A stretch of DNA of 64,000 nucleotides from Escherichia coli (lineage in GTDB: Bacteria; Pseudomonadota; Gammaproteobacteria; Enterobacterales; Enterobacteriaceae), in the NCBI RefSeq assembly GCF_003991155.1, contig NZ_CP031293.1. One strand, 5' to 3'. Of the stretch, positions 6,001 through 9,000 are shown in pieces; the stretch's first letter is position 1, and each line of letters starts with the position of its first letter. Position numbers: made by a program.

Positions 6001-9000
6001 CTGTGGGTGCTTACGGCGCTGTTTGGTTTTGCCGCTGTGTTGATGAGTCTGCGTCAGCGACGTAAACGTTGATGTGAATGATGCGCTGGCCTGCAAAATT
6101 GCATCATTTTTGCAGGCCAGATAAACCGTTAACACCGCATCCGGTATCAACAAAACGTACTTTCTCATTGAGCTGTGGGGCGTGATTATCATGCCCCTTT
6201 TTTCTTACGGTTCAGGGATACAAGCCACATCACCATATTGGGGATGCCGAATAATTGCCTGCGGATCAAGCGAGCGCGTCCTGTCCATTTGGATTAACCC
6301 GTTCTTCGCCATAACAAATATCTTTCTACCATCCGCTGAAAAACGAAGATGATTAACGTAGCTGGCAGGATAAACGCCAATAATCTGCCCGGCATTAATA
6401 TTGAGCAGGATGACATAACCTTGCAGGCCATATGACACCAACGCTAAATATTGACCGTCCGGGCTAATACCCTCAACGGAATAAACGCTCCTGCTACACC
6501 ATTGCGTCATAATGCTGGCTTGTTGATCCCCTACGCTTATACGTGAAATCCCCTGGCTATCGGCAAAAATAATCTCGCCATTTTTTGGTCGGAATCCCAT
6601 CGCAGAAACGACACCACGCGCATCACCTGTGGGAAAGTCTACTTTCTGATGCGTGATGGTATTGATGCGTACAATGTCGCCTCTGACCATACCGGGTATC
6701 AACAATGTTTTTTCATCCGGGGAAAGTGCCATAACCCAGGCGCCTGGTTTACAGCTCGTCCCCGTCCCGTCGTATTTCTCCAGCGGGATATCCGCCACAT
6801 GCTGATAAGTCACCAGATCAATGGCTGACACACTATTACTGGTGCGATTCATCACCCAGGCTTTTGTGCCATCACGTGAGAGGATAAGACTGTCAGGATG
6901 TGCACCGGTGGTAATCGACTGAATAATCTCCCCCGTCGCCACGTTAATGACCGATAACGCATTCGCTTCAAATGAAGTTGCATAAAGCAACGTTTCATCC
7001 GGGCTTAACGCCAGCGATCTGACGGCCTGATCTTTACAGCCACCACAATGTTTGAGTGACTTTTCTTTCGCTATGGGCGCTGTAAAGGTATGCAGGATTT
7101 TCTTTTGTCCGAGGTCGAAAACAACAATGCTGTTGGTGTTTTCAATTGCGGCATACAACGTATTACCATCCCGACTGATCGCCATATCATGGATATCGGC
7201 AATCTCAGCGAGTAAATCACCACTGGCCTGCTCACGACTTACCGGAGCGGATAATGTTTCCGTGAGGGCGTTGCGCTCCTCCATTAACTGCTGCTTTTTT
7301 TGTCGTCGCTCTTGTTCAATCTCCTGCGGATAAAACGCTTCACGCAGGCTTTGCCTGACCTGTAAAACTGATTCATCAATCTGCTGCTGCACAAGCCAGA
7401 TAGCCCCGGTAAGAAGAAGACTGCCCGCAACAATAATCCCGCCTTCCGTAACGAGCCGGTTTTGCCCAGATAAACGCGCACTCAGCCAACCCAACGCGCC
7501 ACCCGCCATCAGGCCGCCAATGTGGCAAGCGTTATCTATTCCTGCTTGCCGGGCACCATACAACAGTGTCAGCGCCACCATACCCAACAGAGAAAATACT
7601 CGCCGCTGGTTTTTATGGTGTGTACCCGCACCTGAAGCAAGCTGTGTTGCTATCGCAGCGCCAGCTATTCCCATAATTGCCCCGGATGCCCCAACGCTGA
7701 TGACTATCTGCTCACTTTCGCGTAACGCATAACAGGCGCTGATGAGTCCACCAAAGACGCCGGAGAATAACCAGATAATCAGGAGTCGCCATTTCCCCAG
7801 TATCCGTTCCGCCACTGCCCCCACTACCAGGAGTGCAAACATATTCATCAGTAAATGGGAAAAACTACTGTGCAGAAAGACACTGCTCAATAAGCGCCAG
7901 GGTTCACCCGACAACGTGAGAGAGGCAACGTTAGCGCCGAGATGGATGAGTGCGGATTGATCGACTTCTTCGTAACTCATCCATTGTGCGAGGTAACAAA
8001 ATATCCCAACACAGAGCGCAAAAAGGATCAGGGTTATTGCGGGTAATTGAACATTTAACGGCTTAACCGAAGATGCAGACATAAGGTGATTCTTCCTTGA
8101 AAAGACTAGTAAAAAGCATTTTCCCGTGTGTAGTTATCATCCCGGCAAACGTCCCACACCGAAAAGTTAACACTGTCCGAAATATGACTTTTTCAAACTG
8201 AAATTACAATCGTAATTAATGCACCCCTAAGTATTTTTTGGCATGTAAGTTGCTTTATTTACTGTGTAAGCAATGAAATCAACCGCGACGCAACCGGGTT
8301 GCACCACCACAAATCAGCGGTAGCACCAAAAAGGTGCAGTTTAAGAATTTTGCTTCGGAATGGTGCGGCGCATCTCGCAAAAACAAACAATAAAACATCA
8401 ATATCTTTACATTTAGCCAAACTAAATGTTACCTAACAAACACAACACTGCACAATAAAGTTGCAGATGATAACAACACAAACACTCACAACGGGTATCC
8501 ATGCGTTCTTAACGCAGAAGATAAAGGAGTTGGATATGCAATTACGTAAACCTGCCACAGCAATCCTGGCCCTGGCGCTTTCCGCAGGACTGGCACAGGC
8601 AGATGACGCCGCCCCGGCAGCAGGCAGTACGCTGGACAAAATCGCCAAAAACGGTGTGATTGTCGTCGGTCACCGTGAATCTTCAGTACCTTTCTCTTAT
8701 TACGACAATCAGCAAAAAGTGGTGGGTTACTCGCAGGATTACTCCAACGCCATTGTTGAAGCAGTGAAAAAGAAACTCAACAAACCGGACTTGCAGGTGA
8801 AATTGATTCCGATCACCTCACAAAACCGTATTCCGCTGCTGCAAAACGGCACTTTCGATTTTGAATGTGGTTCTACCACCAACAACGTCGAACGCCAAAA
8901 ACAGGCGGCTTTCTCCGACACTATTTTCGTGGTCGGTACGCGCCTGCTGACAAAAAAAGGCGGCGATATTAAAGATTTTGCCGATCTGAAAGACAAAGCC

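Follow-up and report, generated by a model that had tools for sequence, protein, structure and literature searches.

The gene at positions 6205..8082 (minus strand) of the window, the stretch of 64,000 nucleotides of Escherichia coli DNA analysed here, is very probably the E. coli allele of rhom7, an accessory yet chromosomally ancient gene for a rhomboid serine protease of the 6+1-transmembrane (TM) type that acts in membrane-protein quality control. The coding sequence comprises 625 codons plus a stop, starts with ATG in the ORF list of the window and is the ortholog of Shigella sonnei Rhom7 (SSON_0610). Its product in RefSeq, from strain 2016C-3878, which is 100% identical, is WP_001276766.1, "rhomboid family intramembrane serine protease." With this annotation, and with the ortholog characterised in S. 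sonnei in 2020, the gene is already known. The first-pass annotation of this DNA had left the function as unknown and had allowed that the ORF might prove to be a well-characterised core gene. The former does not hold, as the ortholog has been characterised and RefSeq names the product in ~60% of complete E. coli genomes; of the latter, the published activity of the ortholog stands, but the gene is accessory: of 5426 complete E. coli genomes, 3232 have it annotated in RefSeq, without exception in the interval from lnt to gltI. The present work adds that the C-terminal domain of Rhom7 is a YVTN propeller, that the rhomboid-propeller architecture is that of a sizeable proteobacterial subfamily and that the rhom7 slot is common to other Enterobacteriaceae.

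Orthology with Shigella sonnei Rhom7

S. sonnei Rhom7 (SSON_0610, UniProt Q3Z4D6) is likewise a protein of 625 residues, ~94% identical to the window protein and colinear with it throughout, with the Ser133/His187 dyad, seven TM domains (TMDs) and a C-terminal domain. The published 625-residue Rhom7_Ss sequence (Fig. EV1) runs colinearly with the window ORF from MSASSVKPLNVQLPAITL to ACIPEP, and two S. sonnei proteins (P0008 and P0017) have 94% and 93% identity over 100% of the query. The differences are allelic only (~6% of residues), and some S. sonnei alleles have a one-residue indel in loop L5 relative to the window protein. The locus tag SSON_0610 suggests that the S. sonnei gene occupies the same lnt-gltI locus; the E. 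coli distribution of the gene was not described by Liu et al. (2020).

Rhom7 in S. sonnei is an active rhomboid that is inactivated by the substitutions S133A and H187A (Liu et al. 2020, EMBO J 39:e102922, PMC7232013). HybA and FdnH, when orphaned, are cut in their TMDs by the over-expressed enzyme, as is the TMD of HybO (Liu et al. 2020, PMC7232013). Its substrates are the single TM anchors of the Tat-exported Fe-S subunits HybA and FdnH after loss of their complex partners, and cleavage, which needs a helix-destabilising proline in the substrate TMD, licenses further degradation (PMC7232013). A model substrate is still cut by Rhom7 without TM7 or without the C-terminal domain (PMC7232013). 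With native levels of Rhom7 in S. sonnei, cleavage of HybA and FdnH was undetectable, and the low native activity was put down to low expression by the same authors (PMC7232013). In the promoter scan of the window, the minus strand upstream of rhom7 gave no sigma-70-like site, which is uninformative by itself yet compatible with the reported low native expression. In S. sonnei, loss of both glpG and rhom7 gave no phenotype in growth, respiration, oxidative stress or the T3SS (PMC7232013).

Dyad-dependent intramembrane proteolysis by the window allele is predicted from its 94%-identical S. sonnei ortholog. By analogy with the over-produced S. sonnei enzyme, Ser133 and His187 would cut the HybO TMD, and the TM anchors of HybA and FdnH left as orphans, inside the membrane; the cut would need a proline that destabilises the TM helix of the substrate and would be followed by further degradation. 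Because cleavage of orphan subunits licenses their degradation, the role is taken to be membrane-protein quality control.

Rhomboid core and predicted periplasmic propeller

The six-TM rhomboid core (residues 13-203; 7474..8046, minus strand) matches Pfam Rhomboid PF01694 with E = 4.6e-28 over residues 59-201 and model positions 2-140 of 143, and sequence searches match it to the solved GlpG structures 2NR9 and 4QO0. In the AF2 model its helices span residues 15-34, 74-95, 97-122, 132-149, 155-178 and 184-203. In an alignment of 19 homologs, with identities down to 25%, residues Trp62, Arg63, His76, Asn80, Gly131-Ala-Ser-Gly134, His187 and Gly190/Gly194 are invariant. These positions include the features of the MEROPS S54 rhomboids, all encoded on the minus strand: the WR motif of loop L1 (Trp62-Arg63; 7894..7899), the HxxxxHxxxN motif of TM2 (HSSFSHLLMN, residues 71-80, in which His71 is nearly invariant; 7843..7872), and the Ser-His dyad, with the serine of GxSG in TM4 (GASG; Ser133 codon at 7684..7686) and the histidine of TM6 (CHIGG/HIGGLMAGG; His187 codon at 7522..7524) followed by a GxxxG packing motif. 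The ORF of 625 residues at 6205-8082 and these motifs had been read in the first-pass annotation, and the codon coordinates are confirmed, as is its assignment of a rhomboid core by the PF01694 match.

The catalytic fold and motifs are shared with GlpG of E. coli and Haemophilus influenzae (structures 2IC8 and 2NR9), and in S. sonnei GlpG and Rhom7 also have HybA as a common substrate and share the quality-control role. Unlike the window protein, GlpG has six TMs, carries a cytoplasmic domain at its N terminus and lacks a periplasmic one. Membership of the GlpG family was rejected on the scores of the NCBIfam equivalogs TIGR04239 and NF008155 (41.3 bits against 250 and 37.2 bits against 335) and is also contradicted by the lack of the N-terminal cytoplasmic domain and by the seventh TM helix. 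The rhombosortase family was rejected likewise (TIGR03902, 46.4 bits against a cutoff of 84).

The AF2 model has a pLDDT of 81, with seven long helices in residues 15-232, and a pTM of 0.58, the relative orientation of the two domains being uncertain. The seventh TM helix (residues 209-232; 7387..7458, minus strand) coincides with a hydropathy peak at 210-233, and seven TMDs were predicted by Phobius for S. sonnei Rhom7 (Liu et al. 2020, PMC7232013). This helix is predicted to take the C terminus to the periplasm: the loops carry ~8 Lys/Arg on the predicted cytoplasmic side versus 2 on the periplasmic side, in keeping with the positive-inside pattern. The AF2 helices and the charge pattern together thus predict a 6+1 topology in which the last ~390 residues, the linker and the propeller, are periplasmic, as the first-pass annotation had thought probable for the propeller. 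The conserved cysteines of the C-terminal domain in the 19-sequence alignment (Cys346, Cys349 and Cys529) fit an oxidising compartment. The charged linker (residues 233-288; 7219..7386, minus strand) is modelled as helices 237-250, 253-276 and 283-286 with a pLDDT of ~68-79 and ends in a conserved Ala286-x-Gly288 sequence, both residues of which are invariant in the alignment.

Residues 289-625 (6208..7218, minus strand) form a seven-bladed YVTN-type β-propeller. The NCBIfam YVTN repeat TIGR02276 matches in two stretches (58.8 bits against a cutoff of 27.85), the Pfam propeller families THOC3, YNCE and Lactonase match residues ~292-610, and there are six S-x-D-[GE] blade motifs, at residues 303, 360, 402, 454, 540 and 582. 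The AF2 model contains 27 strands arranged as seven four-stranded blades of a closed propeller; most 10-residue blocks have a pLDDT of 80-95, with the inter-blade loops falling to ~44-70. The top Foldseek match of the propeller in the PDB is 1L0Q, a surface-layer YVTN propeller of Methanosarcina (E = 8e-18, root mean square deviation 3.4 Å over 308 columns), which is also found by phmmer (E = 7.8e-25) and is the best match in both sequence and structure for residues ~289-600; the seven-bladed 7BIG and 5YZV are matched with TMt of 0.77-0.81. These models and profiles bear out the seventh TM helix, helical linker and propeller that had been proposed from the DNA. The conserved positions in the C-terminal domain (Tyr367, Val410, Asn412, Asn416, Gly393 and Pro396) are structural YVTN residues. 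The YncE family was rejected: NF052280 matches only a single repeat and scores 33.7 bits, where the cutoff is 400.

The propellers of 1L0Q and of the YncE and lactonase types are soluble or surface-layer modules with no protease fusion, unlike that of Rhom7. Nowhere do Liu et al. (2020, PMC7232013) call the C-terminal domain of Rhom7 a β-propeller, and no description of a rhomboid joined to a β-propeller or YVTN domain was found in the limited collection of literature searched. Providencia stuartii AarA, which processes TatA, has the same 6+1-TM core; Rhom7 is 30% identical to it and cleaves the TMD of its substrate (Liu et al. 2020, PMC7232013). AarA has only 281 residues, however, and ends ~40 residues past TM7 with no propeller. 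Bacillus subtilis YqgP (GluP) has, as does Rhom7, a rhomboid core, a seventh TM helix, an extracytoplasmic C-terminal domain built on a repeat scaffold and a role in membrane-protein quality control, but the scaffold is a TPR domain rather than a propeller, and its metal-sensing cytosolic N-terminal domain is absent from Rhom7. Many rhomboid-TPR proteins occur among the distant matches of the window protein.

Proposed role of the propeller

Most likely the propeller serves as an exosite for protein binding, by which native substrates or a partner are selected or presented. In the predicted topology it would share its side of the membrane with the active-site opening and with the folded ectodomains of type I/III substrates. 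Since a model substrate is still cut after deletion of TM7 or of the C-terminal domain, the propeller is not an obligatory activator and, by analogy with the extracytoplasmic TPR domain of B. subtilis YqgP, would not be required for catalysis; the deletions leave room for a role in native-substrate selection or in inhibition. We suggest tentatively, as one possibility, that the rhomboid-TM7-YVTN-propeller proteins are a distinct subfamily in which the propeller reads the folding or assembly state of ectodomains, for example those of Tat-exported Fe-S subunits, so that only orphans are cut. If true, this would be the first ectodomain-directed mechanism of substrate selection for a bacterial rhomboid. 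Substrate choice by rhomboids has been a question for many years, and substrates have been identified for only a few of the bacterial enzymes, Rhom7 among them; its seven-bladed YVTN propeller, in an architecture that recurs in many proteobacteria, offers a testable handle on substrate selection.

The lack of detectable cleavage by native Rhom7 of substrates that are cut upon over-expression might also be explained if the propeller were an autoinhibitory or ligand-sensing gate, capping the periplasmic active-site opening or holding TM5 and loop L5 shut until a periplasmic signal arrives. The low native activity is, however, credited to low expression by Liu et al., and full-length Rhom7 expressed from a plasmid is active without an added signal. 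The metal-ion-sensing N-terminal domain of YqgP provides a precedent for such control, and the model places the propeller and the active-site opening on the same side, but removal of the C-terminal domain neither visibly raised nor abolished activity on the model substrate. The conserved residues of this domain, moreover, are structural, with no obvious conserved ligand pocket in the 19-sequence alignment. A gate of this kind, the idea put forward in the first-pass annotation, would make Rhom7 a regulated signalling protease instead of a constitutive quality-control enzyme and is unlikely.

Locus, distribution and selection

As described in the first-pass annotation, rhom7 is convergent with lnt (4531-6072, plus strand) and divergent from gltI (8536-9444, plus strand). 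A hairpin with a T-run (6177..6206, plus strand), terminator-like by a consensus scan only, lies downstream of lnt and abuts the rhom7 stop codon. Comparison by blastn delimits a presence/absence segment of 2.2 kb (6067..8290) that comprises rhom7, its 3' hairpins and ~208 bp of its 5' region, with junctions at 6066 and 8291 in strain Q65 and in K-12 alike. Gene-less E. coli have in its place an unrelated, REP-like stretch of 154 bp with no similarity to the 2.2-kb segment and no traces of rhom7. The lnt-gltI gap is empty in other gene-less strains such as Q65, which has no insertion sequence there, and that of K-12 lacks rhom7 and contains an IS5. The absence of the gene from K-12 and the presence of IS5, both stated in the first-pass annotation, are thus correct, but the description of the gene as lying where K-12 carries IS5 is misleading: the insertion point corresponds to window positions ~8429-8436, in the shared upstream region of gltI and ~140 bp from the junction at 8290/8291. 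Replacement of rhom7 by IS5 in K-12 is rejected on this distance and on the identity of the K-12 junctions with those of Q65, and the IS5 went in independently and close by, after rhom7 had already been lost from that allele. The sole partial match, in strain BS-01, has at the position of the gene body a poly-C-rich stretch of ~1.5 kb with 61% GC and no family matches, for which an assembly artefact is the likeliest explanation, rather than a new occupant.

Klebsiella aerogenes and one further enterobacterial contig have the same gene order, lnt-rhom7-gltI, which fits an ancestral locus, and the orthologs of other Enterobacteriaceae in this slot have ~50% identity. Proteins with the rhomboid-TM7-YVTN-propeller architecture were found in ~50 clusters at 50% identity across Gamma- and Betaproteobacteria. 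Beyond the lnt/gltI slot the enterobacterial loci have nothing in common, and no conserved neighbour points to a substrate; the neighbours of five distant homologs are unrelated (DUF6384; SCO1/SBP56; MotB/HDOD; a T6SS VasX/IcmF cluster; an MCP). This lack of a conserved adjoining client gene in enterobacterial or distant loci argues against Rhom7 being a dedicated processing enzyme for one exported protein, in the manner of AarA with TatA or rhombosortase with GlyGly-CTERM proteins, with the propeller as the dock for the client. Such a reading would draw on the 30% identity to AarA, on the cleavage of the P. stuartii TatA TMD and on the identification of HybA and FdnH as substrates under over-expression only. 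The weak rhombosortase match in NCBIfam might be added, but it is sub-threshold, and the rhombosortase and GlpG equivalog scores (46 against 84 and 41 against 250 bits) are both far below the cutoffs. E. coli TatA is not known to need N-terminal processing, which also counts against a dedicated enzyme, and we consider this reading improbable.

The dN/dS of rhom7 is 0.20-0.25 overall, with 0.19-0.39 in the core, 0.07-0.26 in the linker and 0.18-0.23 in the propeller, as compared with 0-0.09 for the flanking lnt, gltIJK and corC, so that rhom7 evolves 3-5 times faster than its neighbours at non-synonymous sites. The core and the propeller are both under clear purifying selection. This faster evolution, together with the absence of rhom7 from ~40% of complete genomes (RefSeq annotation), suggests that the gene is dispensable in many lineages. 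That it is a decaying remnant without function in the window strain is nevertheless highly improbable: although truncated or split products are frequent in databases (P0024-P0030; split UniProt entries), the S. sonnei mutant has no phenotype and dN/dS exceeds that of the flanking genes, the 625-residue frame is intact in the window and in five other E. coli genomes (those with annotation read), the catalytic residues are all invariant, a dN/dS of ~0.2 is maintained in core and propeller, the orthologs of other Enterobacteriaceae are kept in the same slot at ~50% identity and the S. sonnei protein is enzymatically active.

The carriers of rhom7 include ST131 and a BL21(DE3) derivative, whereas K-12 lacks the gene. 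The rhomboid background therefore differs between laboratory systems: GlpG is the sole background rhomboid in K-12-based work, and a second rhomboid of active type is present in work based on BL21.

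Identity of the rhom7 gene

The 625-codon ORF occupies positions 6205–8082 on the minus strand, convergent with lnt (4531–6072, +) and divergent from gltI (+, true start at 8536), in a locus with the order ybeZ-ybeY-corC-lnt/rhom7/gltIJKL-rihA. It is complete and has all of the rhomboid motifs cited in the first-pass annotation, namely W62-R63, H71xxxxH76xxxN80, G-A-S133-G, and C-H187-IGGLMAGG. The protein had been regarded there as a fusion of unknown function. However, the 625-residue sequence of Rhom7 from S. sonnei (SSON_0610, UniProt Q3Z4D6), named by Liu et al. (2020, EMBO J 39:e102922; PMC7232013) and given in their Fig EV1, runs colinear with the ORF of the window, from MSASSVKPLNVQLPAITL... 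through ...ACIPEP, and S. sonnei database entries are 93–94% identical to it over the full length. In E. coli 2016C-3878, which is 100% identical to the window over the rhom7 region, the RefSeq label of the ORF is "rhomboid family intramembrane serine protease" (WP_001276766.1). The window ORF represents one allele of a protease that has already been published, characterized by experiment, and named by RefSeq, and therefore the claims of unknown function and of novelty both fail. As a finding of a genome scan, rhom7 is already known; the assignment of its C-terminal domain as a propeller and its population genomics are useful minor additions to what is known of it.

A hairpin with a perfect 13-bp stem (CTGGCCTGCAAAA…TTTTGCAGGCCAG) and a REP-like element (…CACCGCATCCGGTATCAAC…), at 6085–6122 and 6126–6153, are placed between the convergent stops of lnt and rhom7, where the gene-less allele has a different REP-like sequence. 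The lnt–gltI DNA of 2016C-3878 is only ~94–96% identical to that of most E. coli, with 41 records at 99% or higher; its alleles at this locus are uncommon among complete E. coli genomes, and synonymous divergence of the genes flanking rhom7 is 0.04–0.18.

Domain structure and predicted topology

Searches with domain models bore out the proposed fusion: Pfam Rhomboid matches residues 59–201 (E = 4.6e-28), the Pfam propeller families THOC3, YNCE, and Lactonase match residues ~292–610, and the score of the NCBIfam YVTN repeat model exceeds the curated cutoff. Identity as GlpG, rhombosortase, or YncE was rejected, as scores for the NCBIfam equivalogs are far below their cutoffs. The AlphaFold2 model, obtained from an alignment of 19 sequences, has a mean pLDDT of 81 (mostly 80–95 in the propeller, with the exception of a few loops) and comprises seven long helices, the last of which is TM7 (residues 209–232), a charged helical linker (237–286), and a propeller in which 27 strands form seven four-stranded blades. 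The first Foldseek match in the PDB is the archaeal YVTN propeller 1L0Q (E = 8e-18), followed by hydrazine synthase beta and then many 7-bladed WD40/G-beta structures. 1L0Q is also the best solved sequence relative (E = 7.8e-25), and the rhomboid core matches GlpG structures in the sequence search of solved structures. The word "propeller" does not occur in Liu et al. 2020 (PMC7232013), and no description of the Rhom7 C-terminal domain (the part after TM7) as a YVTN propeller was found in the literature searched. Its assignment as a predicted 7-bladed YVTN propeller is new here.

The six-TM rhomboid core is known to have an N-in topology. Based on this and on the distribution of basic residues (~8 in predicted cytoplasmic loops as compared with 2 in predicted periplasmic loops), TM7 should place both the linker and the propeller in the periplasm. 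Cysteines 346, 349, and 529 of the C-terminal domain are conserved in the 19-sequence alignment, consistent with this location. Cys346 and Cys349 form a CxxC-like pair (HCGGCKD, nt ~7036–7047) in a loop of low confidence that connects blade 1 to blade 2; the pair, which is kept in most homologs and replaced in K. aerogenes-type sequences, could be a disulfide, metal site, or redox site.

Among 1.84 billion representatives searched exhaustively, ~50 clusters of 600–690 residues align over both domains in one stretch with 26–35% identity. In AFDB50, proteins from Paraburkholderia and Phytopseudomonas named "Peptidase S54" match the structure over its full length, and Pseudoduganella is among the NCBI names of homologs. 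Rhomboid-propeller fusions thus recur among proteobacteria and are not peculiar to E. coli. No gene neighbors are shared among five distant loci. A 29%-identical homolog, P0045 from metagenome contig DRR294250_113 (1–11944), is encoded within a type VI secretion effector cluster, alongside genes for VasX_N, a DUF4123 adaptor, and IcmF/TssM, a context not seen with the other homologs.

Proteolytic function and proposed role of the propeller

Rhom7 was reported to combine seven predicted TMDs with a C-terminal domain, to have Ser133 and His187 as catalytic residues, and to cut a TatA-TMD reporter on which neither S133A nor H187A is active (PMC7232013). When expressed from a plasmid, it cuts the TMDs of HybA, HybO, and FdnH, the last only without the partner FdnI; cleavage of HybA and FdnH requires a proline in the substrate TMD, and cleavage by Rhom7 licenses further degradation (PMC7232013). 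Native expression in S. sonnei gave no detectable cleavage, and a mutant lacking both glpG and rhom7 behaved without phenotype when assayed for growth, Biolog respiration, oxidative stress, and T3SS (PMC7232013). On these published results, a canonical Ser-His rhomboid that would perform membrane-protein quality control is the best-supported mechanism.

The propeller would lie on the membrane face at which the rhomboid active site opens, as would the folded Fe-S ferredoxin domains of HybA and FdnH, the ectodomains of these type I/III substrates. Because of this placement, and because propellers are scaffolds for protein binding, we favor a role as an exosite or partner-binding element that may select native substrates. 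An autoinhibitory or ligand-gated propeller, the idea of the first-pass annotation, is less likely because over-expressed full-length Rhom7 is active and deletion of the C-terminal domain leaves activity on the reporter like that of wild type (PMC7232013). Family-wide conserved positions of the C-terminal domain in the 19-sequence alignment are mainly structural YVTN residues; an A286-x-G288 motif is conserved where the linker meets the propeller, and no obvious conserved pocket emerges.

Distribution, age, and selection

Among 5426 complete E. coli genomes, 3232 have rhom7 at ≥80% coverage, always as a single chromosomal copy in the lnt–gltI gap. It was found, for example, in an O25:H4 ST131 strain and in Nico21(DE3), a derivative of BL21, and the 90%-identity cluster containing rhom7 has 8814 sequences, with E. 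fergusonii and S. flexneri among its members. Sequence comparison placed the presence/absence segment at 6067–8290; the gene-less strains Q65 and K-12 both have in its stead the same unrelated 154-bp REP-like stretch, with identical junctions. As the first-pass annotation stated, K-12 lacks the gene and has IS5 in the lnt–gltI gap, but the IS5 does not take the place of the gene: it lies at the position of window ~8429–8436, within the shared gltI upstream region, and is an independent insertion into an allele that was already gene-less.

The left junction of the segment is within the last two lnt codons (6061–6072), and Lnt has 513 residues in the window (…RQRRKR*) as compared with 512 in Q65, K-12, and the rhom7-carrying ST131, Nico21(DE3), and STEC719. 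The K-12 IS5, at 3565–4755 of the segment compared, has its insertion point ~100 bp ahead of the gltI start; the adjoining ACTAAAT/CCTAAC sequences fit the IS5 YTAR target, and the insertion may affect gltI promoter architecture in K-12.

The lnt–gltI slot of Klebsiella aerogenes and of another enterobacterial contig contains a 50–52% identical homolog, the flanking proteins being 82–96% identical. The slot is ancient and, since other Enterobacteriaceae have the homolog in the same place, absence in E. coli is most simply a deletion. Within E. coli, dN/dS is 0.20–0.25 for the whole of rhom7 (core, 0.19–0.39; linker, 0.07–0.26; propeller, 0.18–0.23) and 0–0.09 for corC, lnt, and gltIJK. Although rhom7 changes more rapidly than these neighbors, purifying selection is clear in both of its domains and speaks against a decaying remnant.

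Nico21(DE3) (NZ_CP053600.1) has an intact rhom7, at 3001–4878 of the segment compared, and common expression hosts derived from BL21(DE3) thus contain, unlike K-12, a second rhomboid; gltL in this strain (7825–7878 of the same segment) is annotated as a truncated pseudogene. In BS-01 (NZ_CP172816.1), most of rhom7 is replaced by ~1.5 kb of poly-C-rich DNA (3144–4688 of the segment compared; 61% GC) with no protein-family matches, and lnt is called a pseudogene; the stretch looks like a long-read assembly artifact. Many E. coli database entries for rhom7 are split or truncated, propeller-only clusters occur (489 residues with 161 members and 440 residues with 640 members), and UniProt fragments bear the name "Outer membrane protein," suggesting that frameshifts or assembly errors are frequent and that legacy names mislead.
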